A stretch of 32,000 nucleotides of DNA, taken from assembly GCF_005696695.1 (NCBI RefSeq), contig NZ_CP040006.1, forward strand, positions 1 to 32,000, written 5' to 3'. Positions within the stretch are counted from its first letter, which is position 1, and each line of letters starts with the position of its first letter. Origin of the DNA: Schaalia odontolytica (lineage in GTDB: Bacteria; Actinomycetota; Actinomycetes; Actinomycetales; Actinomycetaceae). Positions 11,545 to 25,341 of the stretch are shown here, in pieces. Made by a program: the position numbers and the translations under genes. The notes below the pieces were generated by a model. The model searched no databases. It was not told where the DNA came from and saw only the letters and a list, made by a program, of their open reading frames with translations.

Positions 11545-11573
11545 AAGGGGTCGGCTGATGTCGGCCCCTTTTG
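11545..11573 (+). terminator. intrinsic terminator after the DUF3566 gene
   Basis: AAGGGGTCGGC-TGAT-GTCGGCCCCTT followed by TTTG. 11-bp stem including two G.U pairs, with a T-run. Confidence 0.6.
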
Positions 11574-11600
11574 CTATGCCTTGTGACGGTTATCGCGCTG

Positions 11601-11642
11601 CTTGTAGCCCCGCCTGATCTCCTTGTAGCCCCGCCTGATCTC
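11601..11642. repeat. perfect 21-bp tandem duplication
   Basis: CTTGTAGCCCCGCCTGATCTC occurs at 11601-11621 and again at 11622-11642. Confidence 0.95.
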
Positions 11643-11700
11643 CGGCCGCCGCGTGTCCTGCCCGCCCGCGAGTCGTCCGCGCCGCGAGCTTCGCTCGGCG

Positions 11701-12052
11701 CGTCGTCTCGAAGCACGGCCAGGCCCCGCAGGCCACGCGGCGGCCTCCAATCGGGCGGTGCTTGGTACGTGTGCCCCGCCACCGCCCACCGGCACTGCGG
11801 CAGCTCCCTCCGGCGCCCTTCACATCAGTGGCGCCTTGTCGCTGACGTGTGGCCGGGGCGTCGTCTCGAAGCTCGGCCAGGCCCCGCAGGCCCCGCGGCG
11901 GCCTCCAATCGGGCGGGGCTTGGGGTGCGTGTGCTTGCTCTGGCCCCGCCACCGCCCACCGGCACCGCGGCAGCTCCCTCCGGCGCCCTTCACATCAGTG
12001 GCGCCTTGTCGCTGACGTGTGGCCGGGGCGTCGTCTCGAAGCTCGTCCCGGC
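11701..12052. repeat. GC-rich tandem repeat, module 1 of the composite element (locus A)
   Basis: Units start with CGTCGTCTCGAAGC at 11701, 11859 and 12029 (158 bp, 170 bp, then a partial unit). Copies 1 and 2 are nearly identical apart from a 12-bp indel. Preceded by the hairpin CGCGC(CG)CGAGC-TTC-GCTCGGCGCG at about 11679-11703. Confidence 0.9.
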
Positions 12053-12143
12053 CCCACTATCGCTCACTGTCGCCCGATGTCGGCGCTGCGTGGCCTCACC
12101 TGACTGTGTGTGCTGTACCTCGCTCGATGCCGGGTCATTAATT

Positions 12144-12249
12144 TCGCACGTAATTCCCCTGCGACTGTTTCAGGATTTGAATTGTGATCGTTGGTATTTC
12201 AACGTTTCTGCGTGTTGTTGTGGGGTCGGTCCGATCGAATTACGTGCGA
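12144..12249. repeat. 13-bp perfect inverted repeat flanking an AT-richer 80-bp core
   Basis: TCGCACGTAATTC (12144-12156) and GAATTACGTGCGA (12237-12249). Confidence 0.7.
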
Positions 12250-12300
12250 TTTTTCTAGGAGTGGGTTTGAAGCTACGTGTGGGTGTCGCAGATCCTTCGC

Positions 12301-12507
12301 GTGAAACCGGTTTGCCTGTGCTTGTGCGTGCTTGCGTGGGATTGAAACCGGCGTCGCCTTTGCGCGCTCGTACGTGGCTGGGGTTGAAACCGCCATCACC
12401 TTTGCGGGTGAGATACGGGTGTTTTTAGTGCGTTTTTCGGTTGCAGTGGTGTTGTTGGTTTCAATGGTTGCTGTTCAGGGGTGCGCAGTGGTGATGGTGG
12501 TTTCATG
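12301..12507. repeat. module 2 (locus A): 42-bp phased TGAAACC-N7-CC(T/A)(T/C)TGC motif array, 3 forward then 2 reverse units
   Basis: TGAAACC at 12302, 12343 and 12385. GGTTTCA at 12457 and 12499. The centre carries T-tracts (GTGTTTTTAGTGCGTTTTTCGG). Confidence 0.85.
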
Positions 12508-12571
12508 CTGGCCTGCATCAGTGGCTGCAGTGGTGTCATTATTTGCAAAGTCGCCACGGGCGGGGTCCTGC

Positions 12572-12735
12572 GTGTGAAGAAGTTCGCCCAGCACGGCCTG
12601 ATCGTGGGTGTGAGCGTGAAGTAGTTCGCCCAGCGCGCTCGAAACACCCCACATTTGACGTTTTTAAGGTTGCTGGGCGAATTTTGTCACGGGTTGAGTG
12701 GGGGACAGGGCGCGCCGGGCGAACTTTGTCACGCC
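12572..12735. repeat. module 3 (locus A): 42-bp phased GTGA-N5-TTCGCCCAGC motif array, 2 forward then 2 reverse units
   Basis: AGTTCGCC at 12581 and 12623. GGGCGAA at 12675 and 12717. AT-rich centre CACATTTGACGTTTTTAAGG. Confidence 0.85.
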
Positions 12736-12789
12736 TACCGGCTCGCTACTGTCACCGGCCCTTGCTCGGCCACAGGCCCCGTCCCCGTC

Positions 12790-12880
12790 CCGGAACAGTC
12801 CCGGCCCCGCCACCGCCTGCCGGCCCCGCCACCATAGTTTGCGGTGCCTCCGGCACCCTCCACATCGGCGTCGGTGGGGG
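12790..12880. repeat. degenerate extra copy of module 1
   Basis: CCCGGCCCCGCCACCGCC...GCGGTGCCTCCGGCACCCTCCACATCGGCG aligns with the GGCCCCGCCACCGCCCACCGGCACCGCGGCAG.TCCCTCCGGCGCCCT.CACA core of module 1. Confidence 0.6.
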
Positions 12881-13088
12881 TTTTGCAGCATTAGGAGCTG
12901 GATGTCGGCGTGTCGGCGGCGTGTCGGGGTTCTAATGACGTCATTTCCCCATGTGGCAGCAGTGAGGTCACGGTTCGAGGCCAAAGTGCAGACCACCTTG
13001 ATGAACAACGCTGACAACGGGCTGTTATGGGCGAGGTGGTCAAGGTTTTGGGTACACCGGTGATGTCGGTTTCTGTGGTTCCTTGTTG

Positions 13089-13119
13089 GGGGTGTGCAGT
13101 GGTGATGGTGGTTTCAATG
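13089..13119. repeat. distal near-identical copy of a module 2 reverse unit
   Basis: GGGGTGTGCAGTGGTGATGGTGGTTTCAATG (13089-13119) versus GGGGTGCGCAGTGGTGATGGTGGTTTCATG (12478-12507): one mismatch and one indel. Confidence 0.9.
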
Positions 13120-13323
13120 TCGCCACTTTATCGCCCAGTGGGCCTGGTGGCTGGGTCTATCTACTGGCGACCTTAACCCACCGATGCGCAGCTAAACCCC
13201 ATTGGTGGCATGGTGGGCAGCCCGCCCAGACCACCACCTGTCGGGTTAACGTGCGCGTAGGTGGGCTTAGATAGCCACCAGGTGGGCCCGCGTGCGCATC
13301 ACAGGGCCCGGGTGTCCGGTTCG

Positions 13324-14201
13324 CTAGTTGATGCCAATCCGCGTCGGGCGAGCCCGCAACAGTGCGCTGAGAACAGCACGCAGAAATCGGCCCGACCGCG
13401 ACGGCTGACGGTAATCGGGCGCAAGCGAAGACCTCTGACACCGCCACGCATAGGGGTTGTGGCTGAGCGGCCCCGGCCATGACGACGCGACGACGGTGGC
13501 CGGCGCGGGCAGGGGGAGCAGCGGACTCACCCAGGAACCCGCCGTCACGTAGATGTGTATCAGCCCGCAGATGCTCGCGAAAAATCCACCGTCAACAACC
13601 GGGGCTGGAAAACCCACGGGATCAAACGCGTAGACGTGCTTGAGCGGCGGAGGAGTGACCGTCGCAGCCGCGTACAGCGCGAGATTCGCGCCCTTCGAGT
13701 GTCCGACAACAATAATCGGCCCATCGGATCGCGACGCCGCATATGCCAGATAGTTGGCGGCCCACCGCTGCGAATCAGTCGGGAAATCAAGGCCGAAGCG
13801 GGCATCCTCCGCCCACCCGACCGCGCTTGCATTCGTCCCGCGGAAGACCACGTAGGTCGCCCCGGCCTCGTCGATGAAGGTGACGGAACCGAACTGAGCA
13901 AGCGGGCTCGACGTCAGCCGAGTGACCGCATCGCACACCGCAGGTCCCCGAAGCGCGCGCTCGCACCGGCGGCCTCGAGGAGGGGACGATCGGCGTGGGA
14001 CGCCAACGAATAGCGATACAGAGACGGGATTGACGAGGCCTGGGCGACTTCTCGGAGCAGGCATCCGCGCGCGGAACGAGGGCCGGGCAGCGCGTGGAAA
14101 TCCACGTAGACCAGGCACGAGAGAGCGAGGGCGTCGGCGGGGGAGAGGTCCGCTCGTAGCGGTGTGTGCGAGTCTCGGACGTGCTCGATGACGGTGGTCA
14201 C
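13324..14201 (-). pseudogene. DUF2974 (Mbeg1-like) alpha/beta hydrolase, disrupted by a -1 frameshift
   Basis: The N-terminal 95 aa (GTG 14201, RBS GGAGGAGG) stop at 13914. The rest of the fold continues in another frame (..LAQFGSVTFIDEAGATYVVFRGTNASAVGWAEDARF..IIVVGHSKGANLALYAAA..) down to 13324. This includes the GHSKG nucleophile elbow. Frame geometry fits loss of a single base near 13915-13975. Confidence 0.7.
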
Positions 14202-14268
14202 GAGGCCTCCTCCTCTCCATCGAGGGCCGGACGATCGCGGTCGTGTTGGACGTCACCAACGCTCGATT

Positions 14269-16856: not shown

Positions 16857-19800
16857 GTGCACATCAACCACACGTGGTCGAAGGCTTCCAAGCCGGCCCA
16901 GCTGCTTGCCATGCTGGTCACGACCGCCCTCGTTATGCTCGGCGTCACGACGCTGCCCACATATGCGGCGGCCCCGACGCTCAAACTCGCCATCACACCC
17001 GACGAGACCTCGTATCTCTCCGGTGTCGAGCAGCGCTACGTCGTCGAGTTCGCGTGCGCCTCCACCACGGAGGACTGCCTCGACTCGGTCGTCACCATCA
17101 CGCTGCCCCACACGGTGACCCCCGCGGGCAACTCGAACCTCGACTCGGCCCCCGAAGGCGTCAACGCCACGGCGACCGCCGGCAAGAAGGTCGTCACCCC
17201 CACGATCAAGGCTCCGACCGCTAACGCCGATGGCCTCGTCACCTACAACCTCGGAACAGTCGCCGCCGGCTCGTCGTTCCAGACGGTCCTGACCTTCACC
17301 GCCCCGCGCGGCGTGACCCCCGGCGGCTCCACCGTCACCCCGGTCGCGACCTTCACCTCGGGCGAGAGCAAGGAAACCTCCCAGGCGACCGTCACGATCA
17401 AGTCCGAGCCGACCCCGCTCCTGAGCAAGACCGGCCCGGTCGCAACCCCCAAGAACGTCGACGTGACCTACCAGATCACGCCGAAGTACGACACCAACGT
17501 GGACGGCCTCAACGGCAAGTCCAACATGACCGATGTCGTCATCACCGACCCGCTGCCCGCGTGCGCGAAGTACGTGTCCTCCTCGGCCTCGGGTAACACC
17601 AAGACGAACACGGCCGCGACCGTCGAGAGCTCCTACGACGCCGCGACCCACACCGTCACCTGGAACGTCGGCGACGTCAACCCCGCGTTCATGAACATCG
17701 TCCTGTCCGTCACCGTCCACTACGACGACACCTGCACGGACGAGACCGTCACCAACACCGCGAAGCTCACCGGCAAGGAGATGCACAACGAGACCAACGT
17801 TGTCACCGCCGATGCTTCCTTCACGCACCGCTTCGACAGCGAGATCCGCTACGGTGGCGGCTTCAACAAGCGCGCCATGAGCCAGTTCGAGCGCGGCAAG
17901 CAGGGCAACTGGCTGTACAGCTACTCCAACAACTCCAACGTCCCGGTCGTCATGGAGTACACCGACTACATGACCTGTGGCCTCGTCTCCCCGACCGACG
18001 GCTCCAAGGACTGCGACAAGCCCCTCATGCGCGTCAAGACGATCGACACCCAGACGACGACGCCCATCGAGATTACCTACTGGACCAACAAGGGCAACAC
18101 CGGCACTCAGACCGTCTACCGCGGCAAGGCATTCGACTTCTCCTCCTTCGCCGCCGACGAGTACCTGACCGTCTTCCACTACAAGCAGACGATCCCCGCC
18201 GGTGAGTCCTCGATCCTGAACGTCGCCGGCCCGGTCGGCGCCGGCACCCCAACGACCGAGGACGGCACCACCTACGTCCAGGCCGATACCAACTCCGCCG
18301 CATGGAAGGCCGGCAAGTCCGACCAGTACGTGCGCGTCCAGAACTGTGTCTCCGACTGGTCCATGAAGTCCCTCGACGGCTCCCGATCCATCCAGATCCC
18401 CGCCGACGACTACTGCGACATCCTCACGCTGGGCACCGCGCTGCCCAAGTACTACAACGCCAAGTCCACCATCAAGGGCAACCTGGCGTCCCCCGGCTCC
18501 GAGGTTACCTTCAGCGTCACCGCGAACAACACCTCGACCGTCGTTGACTCCCAGCCCGTCATCTCCGACCTGCTGCCCTGCGGCATGACCTTCGTCGAGG
18601 ACTCCGTCACCGGTGGTCCCGCAGGTAAGGAAAAGACCGTCACGGTCCGCGACGTCACCGACGCCACCGGCTGCACCCGCCAGCTCGTCCAGGTCACCTG
18701 GCCCGGCTACCAGACCAAGGGTGGCACCACCATCCAGCTGCGCGGCAAGGTCGGCCCCTCGATGAGCGCAGGCACGCACAAGAACGAGGCCTACATCTCC
18801 GCAGCCGAACCCGAGTACGCGCTGACCTCCAAGAAGACCACGATCTGCTTCTACGGCTCCACCGACGACACCTACGATGTCAACGGTGATGGCAACACGG
18901 CCGACCAGGTCTGCCCCGTCTCCTCGACCTTCACGGTCTCCGAGCAGGCCGGTGCCGACGTCGTCCTCGAGAGCCTCGGCTCCGTGGAAGGCTCGACCTA
19001 CAAGAAGTACACCGACGGCGTGTCCATGATCCGCCAGGGTGAAGACGGCCAGTACCGCATCACCCCCACCAACTCCGGTAACGCGGACCTGTCCGACATG
19101 ACCGTGTACGGCATCCTGCCCCACGTTGGTGATACCGCCATCCAGGGTTCTGATTCTCGTGGCTCCGAGTGGGCGCCCATCCTCACCGGCCCCCTCCAGG
19201 TCGGCGCAGGCTCGGGCATCGACCCCTCGCAGGTCACCATCGAGTACTCAACCTCCTACAACCCCTGCCGCGGCGAAGTCATGAAGCAGGGCGACGCGAT
19301 GGCGGCTGGCCCCGCCGGATGCGACAACAACTGGACCGCTACTCCGGCCTCGTGGGCCGACGTGAAGTCCTACCGCATCTACATCAACGGCAAGGCCACC
19401 CCGATCAAGGCCGGCGCATCGATCCCGATCATCGCGCCCATCAAGGCCCCCGATAACGCGACCGGCATCGCCTACGAGTCCGTCGCGATCGCGGCCACCC
19501 AGGCCTCGAACAACCGTGCCATCCTGCCCGCCGAGCCGATCAAGGTCGCCATGGCCCTCGCGCTCGACGTCGCCCTCAACAAGACCGTCGTCTCCGACGC
19601 TTCCAACCTGAAGCCCGGAGACCAGGTCACCTACCGCATCGACGCCGGCAACATCGGCCAGGGCAAGGCCCCCGACCTCAAGGTCAAGGAAGCCTTCCCC
19701 GCAGGTACCACCTTCGTGTCCGCCGAGACGCACAAGTGCGCCTCCGGCTACACGACCGGCCTGCCGCAGGAATGTAAGGGCACCGACGAGGCCGGCACCT

Positions 19801-22800
19801 TCGACGGCACCACGTGGACGATCGGCGACATGCTCGCCGGCGAATACGCCTCGCTCTTCGTGACCGTCACGCTGGACGCCGGCACCGACGGCAAGACCCT
19901 CAACAACACGGCCGCCTTCGTGAACCCGCCCGAGTACGACCTCGTGCCCGGCAACAACTCCTCCTCGGCGTCCATCACCGTCAAGCATCGCCTCTCCGGC
20001 AAGGTGTACTACGACGCGAACGAGTCCTCCTCCTTCGACAACGGTGAGGACCCCTTCAAGGACATCACGGTCGAGCTGGTCGGTGCCGACGGTAACGTCG
20101 TCGCCACCACCAAGACCGACGCGGACGGCAACTACTCCTTCACCGGCCTTGACGCCGGAACCTACACGGTCAAGGTCACCAAGGCCGGCGAGATCGCCGA
20201 GCTGACCCAGACCGAGGATCCGGACGGCACGAAGGACAACGCCTCCGGCGCGATCACGCTCAACGCCGACAACCCGGTCCGCGAGAACGTCAACTTCGGC
20301 TACATCAAGAAGCACGCGATCTCCGGCAACGTCTACCTCGATCAGAACCGCGATAAGACGAAGAACACGGGCGATATCGACCTGTCCGGTGTCACCGTGA
20401 AGCTGCTCGACAAGGACGGCAACGTCGTGGGTACCACCACGACCGACAAGGACGGCAACTACTCCTTCACCGGCCTCAGCGACGGCACCTACACCGTCCA
20501 GGTCGACAAGACCGGCCCGCTGGCGGACAAGGAGCAGACCGAGGATCCCTCCGGTAAGACGGACTCGCGTTCGCAGGCCATTACCTTCACGCGCAGCGAC
20601 CCGGACGTCACCAACGTCAACTTCGGCTACGCCGAGGACTACACGGTCTCCGGCACTGTGTACTACGACAAGGACCGCTCCGAGTCCCTCAACAACTCCG
20701 AGCCCGGCTTCGACGGCATCACCGTGAACCTGCTCGGCGAGGACGGCTCGGTCGTCGCGACGACCACGACGAAGGCAGACGGCACGTACTCCTTCTCCAA
20801 GCTGCCCGCCGGCAAGTACACCGTCAAGGTGGAGCCCTCCGACCTCCTCAAGAAGCTCGAGCAGACCGAGGACCCGGACGGCACCAAGGACCACACCTCC
20901 GGCGTCGTCCAGGTGAACCACGACAACCCCTCCGTGAAGAACGTGAACTTCGGTTACGCCACGAACTACACGATCAAGGGCACCGTCTACCGTGACGCCG
21001 ACCGCTCCGAGTCCCTCGAGAACGGCGAGAAGCTCTACCAGGGTGTGACCGTCGACCTTCTCGACACGGACGGTAACGTCGTGGCCACCACGACCACCGA
21101 CGCCAAGGGCGCCTACGCGTTCACCAACCTCGAGGAAGGCACCTACAAGGTCCGCGTCCACAAGGAAGGCCCCATCGCCGACCTCGTCCAGACCGAGGAC
21201 CCCGACGCCACCAAGGACAACACCTCCGGTGACATCACCCTCGAGCTGAACGACCCGATCAAGGAGAACGTCAACTTCGGGTACATCTCGAACAACTCGA
21301 TCTCCGGCACGGTCTACCGCGACGACAACCGCTCCAACTCCCTCAACGGGGGAGAGGCCGGCTACCCCGAGCAGACGGTCCAGCTCCTCGATAAGGACGG
21401 ACAGGTCATCGCGACCACCAAGACCGACGCCAACGGCAACTACTCCTTCGACAACCTGCCCGACGGCACCTACTCCGTCAAGGTCGTCAAGGACGGTGCC
21501 CTCACCGACCTCGAGCAGACCGAGGACCCGGACGGCACCAAGGACAGCGCCTCCGAGCCCATCGTCCTGAACGAGGACAACCCCACGAAGAAGAACGTCA
21601 ACTTCGGCTACGTGCCCGACTACTTCATCAAGGGCACCATCTACCGTGACGGCAACCGCTCCGGCGCGCTGGACACGGATGAGAAGCTCTACGAGGGCGT
21701 GACGGTCAACCTGGTCGACGCCGACGGCAACGTCGTCGCCACCACCACGACCGACGAGAAGGGCAACTACTCCTTCGACAAGCTCCCCGCGGGCACCTAC
21801 TCCGTCAAGGTCGTTCAGGATGGCCCCATCGCCGGCCTCGAGCAGACCGGCGACCCGGACGCCACGAAGGACAACGCCTCCGAGCCCATCACGCTGAACA
21901 ACGACAACCCGTCCAAGACGGACGTCAACTTCGGCTACGTGAACAACAACTCCCTGTCGGGCACCGTCTACCGCGATGACTCGCGCAACGGCGACCAGGA
22001 CGGCACCGAGCCCGGATACTCCGGCGTGACGGTCCAGCTCCTCGACAAGGACGGCAACGTCGTGGGTACCACGACGACCGACAAGGACGGCAAGTACTCC
22101 TTCGAGCACCTGCCCGACGGCACCTACTCCGTCAAGGTCGTCAAGGACGGCGAGCTCGCCGACACCGAGCAGACCGAGGACCCGGACGCGAACAAGGACA
22201 ACGCCTCCGAACCGGTGACCCTGGGCGAGGACAACCCCTCCAAGGACAACATCGACTTCGGATACGTTCCCGACTACTCGATCCACGGCCTCGTCTACCG
22301 AGACGGTGACCGCTCCGAGTCGCACGGCGCGACCGAGAAGGGCTACGCCAACCAGACCGTCGAGCTGCGCGACAAGGACGGCAAGGTCGTCGCGACCACC
22401 ACGACGGACGAGAACGGCGCCTACTCCTTCGAGAAGCTGCCCGCCGGCGACTACACCGTCAAGGTCGTCAAGGACGGTGCCCTCACCGACCTCGACCAGA
22501 CGGAGGACCCGGACTCCACCAAGGACTCCACCTCCGGCGTCATCTCGCTGAGCAACGACCACCGCACCGAAACGGACGTCAACTTCGGCTACATTGCCAA
22601 CAACTCCATCAACGGCACCATCTACCGTGACGGTGACCGCGATGGAAAGAAGGGCGACACCGAAGGACGCTACTCCGGCGTGACGGTCCAGCTCCTCGAC
22701 AAGGACGGTAAGGTCATCGCCACCACGACGACCGACAAGGACGGCAAGTACTCCTTCGAGCACCTGCCCGACGGCACCTACTCCGTCAAGGTCGTCAAGG

Positions 22801-23714
22801 ACGGTGCCCTCACCGACACCGACCAGACCGGCGACCCCGACAACAAGCTGGACAACGCGTCCGAGCCGATCACCCTCGACGAGAAGAACCCCACCAAGGG
22901 TGACGTCGACTTCGGCTACGTCCCGAACAACACCATCAAGGGCACCGTCTACCGCGACGACAACCGCGACAAGACGATCGACGGTGACGAGCCCGGCCTC
23001 GAGCGTGTGAGCGTCCAGCTCCTCGACGAGGACGGCAAGGTCCTCCAGACCCTCGACACCGACGCGGACGGCAACTACGCCTTCCAGCACCTGCCCGACG
23101 GCAAGTACACCGTCAAGGTCGTGCGCTCCTCGTCCATCAAGGACTACGACCAGACCGAGGACCCCGACGCCACCGTCGACGACACCTCCGCGGTGTACAC
23201 GATGGGCCCGGAGAACTCCCTGCAGGAAAAGGTCAACTTCGGCTACGTCCCGGACTACTCGATCGCCGGTCGCGTCTACCGCGACTCCGACAAGTCCGGC
23301 TCCTACACCGACGGTGAAGAGACCTTCTCCGGCGTGACGGTCGACCTGCTCGACAAGGACGGCAACGTCGTGGCCACCACGACGACCGACAAGGACGGCA
23401 ACTACTCCTTCGAGAAGCTGCCCGCCGGCACCTACCGCGTCAAGGTCCACCCGGACGGCGACCTCGCCGGCCTCGACCAGACCGAGGACCCGGACGGCAT
23501 CGCCGACTCCATGTCCGGTGAGATCACGATCGGCTTCGACAACCAGAAGGTCACCGGCGTGAACTTCGGTTACGTCGCGCCCGACGTCCCGGCCACCAAG
23601 CCGAAGAAGGGCCTCGCCCGCACCGGCTTCGACGGCCTGATCGGCGGGGCTGGCCTGGGAGCGGCCGTCGTTGGCGGCATGTTCCTGTGGATGCGTCGCC
23701 GTCGCCAGGACTGA
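16857..23714 (+). CDS. cell-wall-anchored surface adhesin: DUF11/Ig-like N-terminal region, 11 SdrD B-like (Cna-B type) repeats and an LAxTG sorting signal
   Basis: 2285 aa, GTG start with AGGAGAAGG RBS. Signal peptide (..LVMLGVTTLPTYAAAP). DUF11-type segments, e.g. LNKTVVSDASNLKPGDQVTYRIDAGNIGQGKAPDLKVKEAFPAGTTFVSA. C-terminal LARTG (23613-23627), then a hydrophobic helix and RRRRQD tail. Confidence 0.94.
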   Translation: MHINHTWSKASKPAQLLAMLVTTALVMLGVTTLPTYAAAPTLKLAITPDETSYLSGVEQRYVVEFACASTTEDCLDSVVTITLPHTVTPAGNSNLDSAPEGVNATATAGKKVVTPTIKAPTANADGLVTYNLGTVAAGSSFQTVLTFTAPRGVTPGGSTVTPVATFTSGESKETSQATVTIKSEPTPLLSKTGPVATPKNVDVTYQITPKYDTNVDGLNGKSNMTDVVITDPLPACAKYVSSSASGNTKTNTAATVESSYDAATHTVTWNVGDVNPAFMNIVLSVTVHYDDTCTDETVTNTAKLTGKEMHNETNVVTADASFTHRFDSEIRYGGGFNKRAMSQFERGKQGNWLYSYSNNSNVPVVMEYTDYMTCGLVSPTDGSKDCDKPLMRVKTIDTQTTTPIEITYWTNKGNTGTQTVYRGKAFDFSSFAADEYLTVFHYKQTIPAGESSILNVAGPVGAGTPTTEDGTTYVQADTNSAAWKAGKSDQYVRVQNCVSDWSMKSLDGSRSIQIPADDYCDILTLGTALPKYYNAKSTIKGNLASPGSEVTFSVTANNTSTVVDSQPVISDLLPCGMTFVEDSVTGGPAGKEKTVTVRDVTDATGCTRQLVQVTWPGYQTKGGTTIQLRGKVGPSMSAGTHKNEAYISAAEPEYALTSKKTTICFYGSTDDTYDVNGDGNTADQVCPVSSTFTVSEQAGADVVLESLGSVEGSTYKKYTDGVSMIRQGEDGQYRITPTNSGNADLSDMTVYGILPHVGDTAIQGSDSRGSEWAPILTGPLQVGAGSGIDPSQVTIEYSTSYNPCRGEVMKQGDAMAAGPAGCDNNWTATPASWADVKSYRIYINGKATPIKAGASIPIIAPIKAPDNATGIAYESVAIAATQASNNRAILPAEPIKVAMALALDVALNKTVVSDASNLKPGDQVTYRIDAGNIGQGKAPDLKVKEAFPAGTTFVSAETHKCASGYTTGLPQECKGTDEAGTFDGTTWTIGDMLAGEYASLFVTVTLDAGTDGKTLNNTAAFVNPPEYDLVPGNNSSSASITVKHRLSGKVYYDANESSSFDNGEDPFKDITVELVGADGNVVATTKTDADGNYSFTGLDAGTYTVKVTKAGEIAELTQTEDPDGTKDNASGAITLNADNPVRENVNFGYIKKHAISGNVYLDQNRDKTKNTGDIDLSGVTVKLLDKDGNVVGTTTTDKDGNYSFTGLSDGTYTVQVDKTGPLADKEQTEDPSGKTDSRSQAITFTRSDPDVTNVNFGYAEDYTVSGTVYYDKDRSESLNNSEPGFDGITVNLLGEDGSVVATTTTKADGTYSFSKLPAGKYTVKVEPSDLLKKLEQTEDPDGTKDHTSGVVQVNHDNPSVKNVNFGYATNYTIKGTVYRDADRSESLENGEKLYQGVTVDLLDTDGNVVATTTTDAKGAYAFTNLEEGTYKVRVHKEGPIADLVQTEDPDATKDNTSGDITLELNDPIKENVNFGYISNNSISGTVYRDDNRSNSLNGGEAGYPEQTVQLLDKDGQVIATTKTDANGNYSFDNLPDGTYSVKVVKDGALTDLEQTEDPDGTKDSASEPIVLNEDNPTKKNVNFGYVPDYFIKGTIYRDGNRSGALDTDEKLYEGVTVNLVDADGNVVATTTTDEKGNYSFDKLPAGTYSVKVVQDGPIAGLEQTGDPDATKDNASEPITLNNDNPSKTDVNFGYVNNNSLSGTVYRDDSRNGDQDGTEPGYSGVTVQLLDKDGNVVGTTTTDKDGKYSFEHLPDGTYSVKVVKDGELADTEQTEDPDANKDNASEPVTLGEDNPSKDNIDFGYVPDYSIHGLVYRDGDRSESHGATEKGYANQTVELRDKDGKVVATTTTDENGAYSFEKLPAGDYTVKVVKDGALTDLDQTEDPDSTKDSTSGVISLSNDHRTETDVNFGYIANNSINGTIYRDGDRDGKKGDTEGRYSGVTVQLLDKDGKVIATTTTDKDGKYSFEHLPDGTYSVKVVKDGALTDTDQTGDPDNKLDNASEPITLDEKNPTKGDVDFGYVPNNTIKGTVYRDDNRDKTIDGDEPGLERVSVQLLDEDGKVLQTLDTDADGNYAFQHLPDGKYTVKVVRSSSIKDYDQTEDPDATVDDTSAVYTMGPENSLQEKVNFGYVPDYSIAGRVYRDSDKSGSYTDGEETFSGVTVDLLDKDGNVVATTTTDKDGNYSFEKLPAGTYRVKVHPDGDLAGLDQTEDPDGIADSMSGEITIGFDNQKVTGVNFGYVAPDVPATKPKKGLARTGFDGLIGGAGLGAAVVGGMFLWMRRRRQD
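19992..23576 (+). repeat. 11 tandem in-frame repeats of about 327 bp (109 aa) encoding SdrD B-like domains
   Basis: Each unit reads xSGxVYxDxxR..GxxGVTVxLLDxDGNVVATTTTDxDGNYSFxxLPxGTYxVKVxxxGxLxxLxQTEDPDxTKDNxS..NPxxxNVNFGY. There are 11 (N/D)FGY unit ends. Confidence 0.92.
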
Positions 23715-23762
23715 GGATCATTCGGCCTGAGCCTCGACGAGGCAGTGGCTGAGTGAGCCGAC

Positions 23763-23794
23763 AAGGGGCGGGTACTTCGGTACCCGCCCCTTTG
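23763..23794 (+). terminator. intrinsic terminator of the adhesin gene
   Basis: AAGGGGCGGGTAC-TTCG-GTACCCGCCCCTT then TG. Perfect 13-bp stem, UUCG loop, short T-run, 49 nt after the stop. Confidence 0.7.
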
Positions 23795-23952
23795 GCGTAC
23801 CTGGGTGGTCGTGTGATGTACCCGGGCGGTTGTGTGGGCCGGGCTACTTGTGGCCTCACGGGTGTTCCGGGTGCCGTCGGGCCCGGCCGCTGTGTGTTCC
23901 GGTGGGCGGCGGCCCGCCCGCTCGCCGTCCGCGCCGCGAGCTTCGCTCGGCG

Positions 23953-24148
23953 CGTCGCCTCGAAGCCCGGCCAGGCCCCGCCACCGCCCACCGGCACCGC
24001 GGCAGATCCCTCCGGCGCCCTCCACACCAGTGGTGCCGGGTGTGTTGATGGGCACGGCGCGTCGTCTCGAAGCCCGGCCAGGCCCCGCCACCGCCCACCG
24101 GCACCGCGGCCAGGCCCTGCCGCCATCCACCGGTGTGGCCGGTGACTC
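23953..24148. repeat. module 1 (locus B): two 107-bp tandem units
   Basis: CGTCG(C/T)CTCGAAGCCCGGCCAGGCCCCGCCACCGCCCACCGGCACCGCGGC starts at 23953 and 24060. Preceded by the same hairpin-containing lead-in CCGCGCCGCGAGCTTCGCTCGGCG as locus A. Confidence 0.9.
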
Positions 24149-24150
24149 TC

Positions 24151-24316
24151 GTGAAACCGTCATCACCTTTGCTGGCGCGTGCTCTGTCTCCAGTGAAACC
24201 GACGGCACCATTGCTCGACAGAAACACCCGTTTTTGATGCTATGTCTTCGAGCAAAGGCGTCGTGGGTTTCATGGTGGCATCATGAGGCTCCAGCATTGG
24301 TGCCCGCGGTTTCACA
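24151..24316. repeat. module 2 (locus B): 2 forward plus 2 reverse TGAAACC-type units, 42-bp phased
   Basis: TGAAACC at 24152 and 24194. GGTTTCA at 24266 and 24308. Centre GAAACACCCGTTTTTGATGC. Confidence 0.85.
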
Positions 24317-24339
24317 CAACGGCAGGGCGAGCAGTTTCG

Positions 24340-24462
24340 GCGCGAAAAAGTTCGCCCTGCTCGGCCTGGTGTGGGCGTAAGCGCGAAAAAGTTCGCCCAG
24401 CATACGAAAAATGGCCCAAAAATGGTGTTATATGGCGTGCTGGGCGAGTTTTTTCGCGGGCG
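24340..24462. repeat. module 3 (locus B): 2 forward plus 1 reverse TTCGCCCAGC-type units
   Basis: AGTTCGCC at 24349 and 24390. 21-nt inverted repeat CGCGAAAAAGTTCGCCCAGCA (24382-24402) / TGCTGGGCGAGTTTTTTCGCG (24438-24458), 19 of 21 complementary. 35-nt A-tract spacer. Confidence 0.88.
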
Positions 24463-24647
24463 TGAGCTCGAAGGCCTCGTGTGGGTGGCAGGTGGTCAGT
24501 CTCCAGTGTTCAAGCCACCGCGGCACCCGGTGTGACTGGTGTTGTGGGTGCCTGGGGGATGTCGCGAAGGTGGGCAGGAAGCTGTTGCAAACGCAAACCT
24601 GTGAGGATGAAGCCGATGACGCCGCGTCCAACGATCTGCATACAGAA

Positions 24648-24673
24648 GCGCCCGGGGCCGTGGCCCCGGGCGC
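24648..24673 (-). terminator. terminator of the minus-strand murJ-trxB-PAP2 operon
   Basis: GCGCCCGGGGCC-GT-GGCCCCGGGCGC, a perfect 12-nt inverted repeat 27 nt downstream of the PAP2 stop. On the minus strand it is followed by TTCTGTAT. Confidence 0.6.
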
Positions 24674-24699
24674 TCCCGGCAACAACTGAGCTCCGATAA

Positions 24700-25341
24700 C
24701 TAGCGGAACAACTTTAGGGCGTTAGGCCCAATCATGAACGGCGCCAAGATCATCGACGAGCCCAGACCCACGCTGAAGCCGGCGATCACGTCGGTCACCC
24801 AGTGGACGCCCAGGTACAGGCGAGTCACGCAGATGAAGACGATGAGCGTCAGCGCCGCGGCCCACAGCAGGTAGCGCAGACGGCGACCGACGCGCGTCGT
24901 CGTCAGGACCAGCACCAGGGACACGAACAGCGCAGTCACGGCCGTCGCGTGACCCGACGGGAACGAATAGCCGTCCTCGGTGATCAGGCGTAGCGCCTCC
25001 TCGGGGCGAGGACGCTCGTACAGGTGCTTGATGATGTAGCTGTTTGCGGCCGAGAACACGACGGAACACAGGATGTACAGGGCGTTCATGACCTTCTTGA
25101 TGAACCACCACACGGCGCCCGCCACGACCAGCGCCACGACGACCGCGCGCTTGGGGTCGAACAGCCACGAGGCGCCCGTCATGAAGGAGTTCATCGCCGG
25201 CGTGCGCGACGCGACGAAGTCAGACCACACCGTGGTGTCGATCGACAGGGGACTCGTGATGAATCCGCCCGCGACGGCGACAGCAGCGACGAGGAGAACC
25301 CCGATGATCACGGGGGGAGTCAGGAGGCGACGAGCAATCAT
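24700..25341 (-). CDS. PAP2 superfamily phosphatase (membrane lipid-phosphate / polyprenyl-diphosphate phosphatase type)
   Basis: 213 aa with multiple TM helices. The three PAP2 motifs are KHLYERPRP, SFPSGHA and TRLYLGVHWVTDV. Confidence 0.9.
   Translation of the reverse strand: MIARRLLTPPVIIGVLLVAAVAVAGGFITSPLSIDTTVWSDFVASRTPAMNSFMTGASWLFDPKRAVVVALVVAGAVWWFIKKVMNALYILCSVVFSAANSYIIKHLYERPRPEEALRLITEDGYSFPSGHATAVTALFVSLVLVLTTTRVGRRLRYLLWAAALTLIVFICVTRLYLGVHWVTDVIAGFSVGLGSSMILAPFMIGPNALKLFR

Follow-up and report, generated by a model that had tools for sequence, protein, structure and literature searches.

The two TGAAACC arrays in the window (the whole 32,000-nt stretch of Schaalia odontolytica DNA analyzed here) belong to a dispersed mosaic repeat that lies in intergenic DNA and is specific to the Schaalia/Pauljensenia lineage (formerly Actinomyces odontolyticus); they are copies of one of its modules, and each copy is an oriented imperfect palindrome of 42-nt units. 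As far as the literature was searched, no description was found of repeats of this kind in Schaalia or A. odontolyticus, a common oral actinobacterium, and the family of small interspersed repeats is to that extent undescribed. The arrays have no special link to oriC, and the idea of a ParB array at the origin can be dropped. That the family is a dispersed modular repeat we take as shown; on balance, we consider it probable that it is of the BIME/BOX type and that any activity it may have is that of a hairpin in a single strand, probably of RNA.

Anatomy and distribution of the TGAAACC arrays

TGAAACC has 11 matches in the window against 2.13 ± 1.67 expected, a number reached in none of 100 shuffles, and the two-unit pattern TGAAACC-N7-CCNNTGC-N20-22-TGAAACC occurs four times against 0.00 expected. 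An earlier note on this DNA had placed the motif at 12302, 12343 and 12385 on the + strand and at 12457 and 12499 on the − strand (locus A), and at 24152 and 24194 (+) and 24266 and 24308 (−) (locus B), and all of these starts are exact. Its spacing of 41–42 bp is also correct (41, 42 and 42 at locus A; 42 and 42 at locus B), the 41-bp step being due to a 1-nt deletion in the outer left unit, and both arrays do flip orientation, about T-rich centers. The same note proposed a duplicated 42-bp unit as the building block and a core that is conserved against a variable remainder of the unit. We find that orthologous copies differ by clean indels of 42 or 84–85 columns and that a 21-nt core is constant. 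It had missed that loci A and B are paralogous across ~500 bp, other repeat modules on both sides included. The units of the arrays are the following:

12302..12321, + strand: outer left unit of locus A, degenerate (TGAAACC-N6-CC-TG-TGC)
12343..12363, + strand: left unit L2 of locus A, core TGAAACCGGCGTCGCCTTTGC
12385..12405, + strand: innermost left unit L1 of locus A, core TGAAACCGCCATCACCTTTGC
12406..12442, + strand: 37-nt center of locus A, with two T5 runs
12443..12463, − strand: innermost right unit R1 of locus A, on the + strand GCAGTGGTGTTGTTGGTTTCA
12485..12505, − strand: right unit R2 of locus A, on the + strand GCAGTGGTGATGGTGGTTTCA
12527..12547, − strand: degenerate right unit R3 of locus A, GCAGTGGTGTCATTATTTGCA
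13054..13116, − strand: one-armed copy of two reverse units, 13054-13074 degenerate and 13096-13116 exact
24152..24172, + strand: left unit L2 of locus B, TGAAACCGTCATCACCTTTGC
24194..24214, + strand: innermost left unit L1 of locus B, TGAAACCGACGGCACCATTGC
24215..24251, + strand: 37-nt center of locus B, containing …CCCGTTTTTGATG…
24252..24272, − strand: innermost right unit R1 of locus B, on the + strand GCAAAGGCGTCGTGGGTTTCA
24294..24314, − strand: right unit R2 of locus B, on the + strand GCATTGGTGCCCGCGGTTTCA

Two members of this list had been overlooked before, namely the degenerate third reverse unit at 12527-12547 and the one-armed array at 13054-13116. The former (R3) is intact, with GGTTTCA, in the orthologous loci L038 and L086; the latter has a T-tract center before its reverse units and is without a left arm.

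Searched with the two-unit pattern, 185,579 species genomes gave at least 120 blocks of 8 kb. Among the blocks listed, at least 99 come from 23 Actinomycetaceae-type assemblies, and a single assembly can hold 14 blocks or more. The sources of these 99 listed blocks are Schaalia, Pauljensenia and 'Actinomyces sp.', together with one assembly labelled Sanguibacter and one labelled Xylanimonas, in both of which the flanks are 92–97% identical to Schaalia/Pauljensenia loci. The 21 listed blocks from other phyla are single matches, none of them flipped, and their number is close to chance expectation. On Contig1 (1.67 Mb) of Schaalia sp. ORNL0103, copies stand at 40 kb and at 1.6 Mb, and the family is therefore not tied to the origin.

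The architecture is that of n forward 42-nt units, a fixed 37-nt center and m reverse units, in which each unit consists of a 21-nt core, TGAAACC-N5-C-N-CC-NN-TGC, and a 21-nt spacer. Among the matches listed, the core is near-invariant (89–96%) in units beyond those that the search pattern required, outer units are added at 42-nt steps, and the offset from the innermost forward start to the left edge of the innermost reverse unit is 58 nt at 104 of 106 centers, which makes the 37-nt center length a fixed property of the family. Arms range from one to five forward and from one to six reverse units among the copies listed, two plus two being the commonest arrangement (40 of 103 copies). The spacers are not random either: among the matches listed, about three classes per arm account for more than half of them, and these classes recur among copies and genomes. 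Spacer length (21 nt) and center length (37 nt) stay constant even across classes that have no sequence in common. A diverged relative of the array is found in Schaalia meyeri (L025, 5624-5743), where the cores read TGAAACC-N7-CCCCTGC and GCGGGGG-N7-GGTTTCA, that is, with TT/AG changed to CC/GG on both arms, and the 58-nt offset is retained.

What remains of the proposal that these are degenerate or half-site ParB loading arrays, or some other centromere-like array, near oriC? The units do have in common with the parS half-site GTGAAACA the hexamer TGAAAC, two copies lie 12 and 24 kb from dnaA, and sopC of the F plasmid, a phased centromere array of 12 x 43 bp, is a precedent for the ~42–43-bp phasing. 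It was also correctly noted that the window is without a full parS (0 matches at up to three mismatches). The half-site itself, however, does not hold up: among the matches listed, TGAAACC follows a T in 188 of 425 units, a C in 100, an A in 72 and a G in only 65 (15%), so that only the hexamer TGAAAC resembles parS, and the further 14 nt of the core (N5-C-N-CC-NN-TGC) have no parS counterpart. The search for full parS sites elsewhere, which the note had suggested, yields four perfect 16-bp sites, TGTTTCACGTGAAACA, for the same strain; they lie in its parA-parB region, on a contig (L001) that is 99% identical to the window over dnaA and beyond. These sites lie at 759, 2584, 3034 and 3157 of that contig, 5–7.5 kb upstream of dnaA, and one of them is within the parB coding region. 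The dispersal of the repeat likewise speaks against confinement to the origin, with at least 99 blocks on many contigs of 23 assemblies or more, and the array of locus B is missing in other strains. Centromeres occupy one or few loci per replicon, next to or near partition genes, whereas the Schaalia repeat is dispersed, can be dispensed with at any one site and resembles parS in no more than six bases of its core. It is very unlikely that the arrays serve ParB or act as a centromere, and we attach next to no probability to the half-site loading array near oriC.

A mosaic intergenic repeat that varies between strains

The window carries, in order, dnaA, dnaN, recF, DciA, gyrB, gyrA, DUF3566, the repeat zone of locus A, an Mbeg1-like gene, tRNA-Ile, tRNA-Ala, photolyase, a 2285-aa SdrD-B surface protein, the repeat zone of locus B, PAP2, a thioredoxin-reductase-like gene and MurJ. 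When loci were fetched via their two flanking proteins, those of the window proved 100% identical to LLVT01000001.1 of assembly GCA_001462375.1, which is Actinomyces (now Schaalia) odontolytica subsp. actinosynbacter XH001 (PMC4742689). In that record, the repeat zones at 11.5–13.3 kb and 23.7–24.7 kb of the window correspond to ~644.3–646.3 kb and ~656.8–657.5 kb. Convergent genes flank the arrays at both loci. The mosaic begins 3' of the terminator-like hairpin of the DUF3566 gene at locus A, and 3' of a G+C-rich hairpin at locus B. A consensus scan found no promoter or intrinsic terminator within the arrays, its sole matches being 11553-11566, which belongs to the upstream gene, and 12122, and a terminator scan of 23600-24800 gave no terminator-like site. 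The features around the arrays are the following:

11545..11572, + strand: terminator-like hairpin and T-run of the upstream DUF3566 gene (terminator scan: 11553-11566)
11660..12095, + strand: module a copies of locus A, units at 11696, 11854 and 12024
12570..12740, + strand: module c of locus A, AAGTTCGCCC 10-mers at 12580+, 12622+, 12675− and 12717− (spacings 42, 53 and 42)
23762..23795, + strand: G+C-rich hairpin and TTT, following the surface-protein (2285 aa) stop codon (by-eye reading only)
23840..24125, + strand: module a of locus B, G+C-rich repeats CGGCGCGTCGYCTCGAAGCCCGGCCAGGCCCCGC…
24340..24465, + strand: module c of locus B, GCGAAAAAGTTCGCCC units at 24348+ and 24389+, reverse arm at ~24440

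Two of the neighboring genes deserve a brief description. At 13324-14259, between the repeat zone of locus A and tRNA-Ile, lies the Mbeg1-like (lipase-like) gene, whose third-position G+C signal is weaker than that of its neighbors but which keeps its position in all ten orthologous loci. The surface-protein gene at 16857-23714 contains 11 tandem 327-bp (109-aa) SdrD-B/CarboxypepD_reg repeats of 62–76% DNA identity, and its orthologs in other strains encode 1742–1744 or 2285 residues.

The whole mosaic repeat measures ~0.6 kb, and the TGAAACC array is the module in its middle. At locus B, coverage by other loci delimits the common region to 23840-24465, with module a at its left end, the TGAAACC array as module b at 24140-24320 and module c at its right end. 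The array usually lies in this way, between the G+C-rich module a and the second flip array c; of 73 oriented copies among the matches listed, 48 have module c on the 3' side of module b and 5 have it on the 5' side. Module c is a flip array of its own, made of AAGTTCGCCC units that are spaced by 42 nt (38 cases) or 41 nt (20 cases) and flip at 53 nt, on a lattice similar to that of module b (41–42 nt). The intergenic DNA of S. odontolytica is largely a patchwork of repeat modules.

Several further observations concern these modules. The units of module c read G(Y)GAARAAGTTCGCCCAGC, forward and then reverse about an A/T-rich center. Module a, the most widely shared part of the mosaic among the fetched loci, consists of CGGCGCGTCGTCTCGAAGCCCGGCCAGGCCCCGC… repeats, of which the window has five copies at spacings of 107–170 nt (11660-12095 and 23840-24125). 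More shared intergenic modules lie at ~12140-12165, 12870-12950 and 13130-13320, and also in L086 and L135; one such additional module is a hairpin, GGGGGTTTTGCA…TGCAATTCCCC, and another, a segment of ~190 nt, precedes the Mbeg1-like gene and is found again in the alternative cassette that other strains carry at locus B.

How the repeat varies can be followed at orthologous sites. We compared the DUF3566–Mbeg1 spacers of ten strains or species that encode an identical DUF3566 protein. All ten contain modules b and c; module b ranges from (2,1) to (3,3) units, and module c from (2,1) to (2,3). In the alignments the copies are set apart by clean indels, 42 or 84–85 columns long; left-arm spacers are swapped for other classes between species, and one ortholog (L150) has a module c with diverged cores. 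At locus B, strains with an identical PAP2 protein and the same surface-protein gene are without modules b and c and have an unrelated ~1.3-kb cassette instead, with breakpoints inside shared sequence. Unit number is thus altered by gain and loss of whole 42-nt units in a VNTR-like manner, probably via slippage or unequal recombination; whole cassettes are swapped between strains; and a given array copy is dispensable. Strains that lack the array of locus B have, at the orthologous position (L135, 5366-5447), four copies of CCTATCCAG, three in the same orientation at 19-nt spacing and one inverted, an arrangement with an iteron-like look; this motif is absent from the window.

Other identities of the arrays were considered and rejected. 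Although 42 nt equal 14 codons, a coding repeat is not indicated, as no ORF in 11.6–13.3 kb or 23.7–24.7 kb passes the GC3 criterion of the coding neighbors; the sole exception near the repeats is the Mbeg1-like gene, which is partly recovered. The ORFs at 11571-12428, 12543-12935 and 12698-13063 have no Pfam match. A CRISPR array does not fit either, with every copy flipping orientation and, among the matches listed, spacers that recur in few classes between copies and genomes. In a search for known RNA families only two tRNAs of the window pass the Rfam 15 gathering score, and at the E-value threshold the repeat region gives only chance matches to plant miRNA precursors, at 22 bits against a gathering score of 268. 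A phage or plasmid origin finds no backing in blastn, in which the 626-bp mosaic had no match among 50,697 phage records or among 72,556 plasmid records. Four prophage-like IMG/VR contigs (L127, L129, L131 and L132; sample 3300045988) do end within ~600 nt of a TGAAACC flip array. Their genes include a tape measure and a major head protein and, in L129, a ParB-like nuclease-domain protein. For these contig ends, an assembly break is a more likely explanation than carriage of the repeat by phage.

Strand asymmetry and possible modes of action

The two strands of the array are not equivalent. Orientation was set by the central base, which is T in half of the copies and A in the other half. In copies oriented accordingly, the cores differ systematically between the arms, with CgCCTTTGC on the left and CaCC(t/a)CTGC, as its reverse complement, on the right. 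The top strand is rich in G (35%) and T (29%). An element has on average 20.0 G·U-type pair positions on the G/T-rich strand against 5.6 on the other, and core positions 13 and 17 are G·U between the arms in 71% and 61%, respectively. The mean RNA folding energy is −79.3 kcal/mol for the top strand and −53.2 kcal/mol for its complement, and in 89 of the 96 copies it is the top strand that folds better. For locus A of the window, the + strand reaches −112.5 kcal/mol (z −3.3) and the − strand −65.4 (z −0.85); for locus B the values are −86.9 and −79.2 kcal/mol, respectively.

Orientation is also biased with respect to genes, as called by a simple GC3 gene caller that recovers most genes of the window. 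Between tandem genes, the G/T-rich strand is the sense strand of both neighbors in 21 cases and their antisense strand in 4; after orthologous flanks were merged into 46 clusters, there are nine sense against one antisense, with seven convergent spacers and one divergent, so that divergent (promoter) spacers are rare (1 of 46 clusters). Within 8-kb blocks the directions of replication and transcription are confounded, and the one usable block, to the left of oriC (L107, ORNL0103 Contig2), has an ambiguous gene context.

Is the pairing itself under selection? Across 36 diverse copies, 71.7% of cells pair, against 70.7% when partners are shuffled (19 of 500 shuffles reach the observed value), and element-specific compensatory pairing is not demonstrable at this difference. 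Sliding the register lowers the pairing of the full-length hairpin to 39–46%, and the spacer columns pair in only ~30–60% of cells; most of the hairpin pairing is therefore owed to the inverted cores, which are conserved. A G+T compositional skew, rather than selection for pairing, could account for part of the G·U excess.

We regard action as a single-stranded, probably RNA, hairpin as the most likely, though unproven, mechanism. The repeat, if active at all, would work as a single strand: the G/T-rich strand, usually sense to the gene on its 5' side, would fold as a long G·U-rich hairpin in read-through RNA, as for BIME, BOX and Correia-type repeats, and could protect, process or insulate the neighboring transcripts, with the conserved core as the recognition site for a putative factor. 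The window arrays would be transcribed only by read-through, as both sit downstream of a terminator-like hairpin (that of locus B identified by eye). The strict lengths of the 21-nt spacer and the 37-nt center, on the other hand, are not needed for an RNA hairpin, and a ruler-like protein contact would account for them at least as well.

Such a contact is the essence of a reading in which the repeat acts as double-stranded DNA, which we hold to be unlikely though by no means negligible. A putative DNA-binding protein, be it nucleoid-associated, topological or regulatory, would read the 21-bp core every 42 bp, that is, every four helical turns, would bind in opposite orientation on the two arms and would make the arrays dispersed protein-loading platforms. 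The near-invariance of the core (89–96%) where the search pattern made no demand would suit this, as would a spacer and a center whose lengths are fixed across sequence-unrelated spacer classes, a second core family (module c) on a similar 41–42-nt lattice, and the weak covariation of the hairpin. However, the differences between left-arm and right-arm cores are systematic transitions through which one strand keeps its G·U pairs, and a reader of the duplex does not require them. The strong orientation bias relative to genes also counts against this reading. Exact 42-bp phasing, moreover, is an automatic result of whole-unit duplication, the array of locus B is dispensable in other strains, and no candidate protein was found. 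There is a small chance that the 42-nt lattice of two unrelated core families (TGAAACC…CCTTTGC and GAAAAAGTTCGCCCAGC), both of which flip about fixed centers and keep their spacer lengths invariant, represents a new periodic recognition platform, on which a protein or ribonucleoprotein would recognize the 21-nt core at 42-nt steps, either in a folded strand or in a duplex. If so, the repeats would be functional cis-elements behind genes, for instance direction-dependent insulators of transcription or RNA processing, and not selfish DNA.

Mobility offers another explanation. The repeat might be a non-autonomous, MITE-like transposable element whose cores are subterminal transposase-binding sites, as in Tn7, Mu and IR-DR elements; high copy number, intergenic dispersal, adjacency to prophage contigs and the presence/absence polymorphism of locus B would all be in keeping with it. 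Each copy does have terminal inverted repeats, in the form of inverted arms with several repeated sites, and the outermost units end in 5'-TG…CA-3' (TG opens each unit, and CA closes its mirror image). Nonetheless, we give this explanation little credence: no direct repeat was seen in the sequences beside 31 two-plus-two copies, and hence no target-site duplication surrounds the outermost units; with one to six units per arm there are no fixed termini; the flanks are other shared modules in a fixed order; the polymorphism of locus B is a cassette replacement and not a clean insertion; and inspection, which was not systematic, of the window and the fetched loci revealed no transposase gene with such ends. 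The chance is slimmer still that the hairpin is read in single-stranded DNA during replication, for example by a RAYT (REP-associated tyrosine transposase) or another HUH enzyme, with G·T mismatches tolerated in the folded strand. The strand asymmetry would be the same as for RNA, the organization is a BIME-like mosaic, and the top strand of the window is the + strand just downstream of dnaA, which would make it the leading strand if oriC lies beside dnaA and the forks travel outward from there. Yet the units, as read from their sequences, are without a GTAG or CGTC tag and are far longer than REPs, and orientation tracks the neighboring gene, with replication and transcription confounded in 8-kb blocks.

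Relation to known repeat systems

By analogy of organization, the closest counterparts are the pneumococcal BOX elements and the enterobacterial BIMEs. BOX (boxA-boxB(n)-boxC) of Streptococcus pneumoniae is a modular intergenic interspersed repeat with a ~45-nt internal module of strain-variable copy number; it has a predicted RNA fold, is often clustered with other repeat families, and shows no clear target duplication and no proven mobilizing enzyme (PMC3049150). The Schaalia repeat resembles it in its defined order a-b-c, its internal module of variable number and its whole-unit indels between strains. In contrast to BOX, which has one tandem boxB array between unlike ends, the Schaalia units stand on both arms, inverted about a fixed center, and two core families occupy a similar 41–42-nt lattice; no sequence relationship between the two repeats is apparent, moreover, and they come from different phyla with different G+C content.

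REPs and BIMEs are extragenic, high-copy mosaics of palindromic units in alternating orientation and short motifs, mostly after genes; hairpin formation in the RNA and protein binding by the DNA have both been proposed as their mode of action. The Schaalia repeat, too, is a high-copy extragenic mosaic of palindromic parts in alternating orientation. The REP unit is described in PMC3733652 as a short hairpin of 20–40 nt with a GTAG or CGTC tag, and that paper, with PMC3049150, also supplies general background on REPs and BIMEs. Measured against that description, the Schaalia unit differs in being 42 nt long, with a non-palindromic 21-nt core and no GTAG or CGTC tag, and its palindrome is made by whole arrays and not by single units. 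Similar to MIRU-VNTR loci, the 42-nt intergenic units of Schaalia vary in number at orthologous loci, whereas unlike MIRUs their arrays flip orientation and form array-scale palindromes. MIRU-VNTRs (mycobacterial interspersed repetitive units) are actinobacterial intergenic tandem units of 40–100 bp whose number varies between strains at orthologous loci; MIRUs form direct arrays inside operons, and some MIRUs are translated.

If the hairpin or the lattice is functional, then the fixed geometry, the strand asymmetry and the placement after genes would provide a defined high-G+C system for the study of BIME- and BOX-like repeats. TM7x, an epibiont of the Saccharibacteria, has XH001, the strain of the window arrays, as its laboratory host. 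In practice, the repeats break short-read assemblies, with metagenome contigs terminating there, and yield spurious ORF calls. Because whole 42-nt units come and go at orthologous loci, they are also ready-made markers of the VNTR type.
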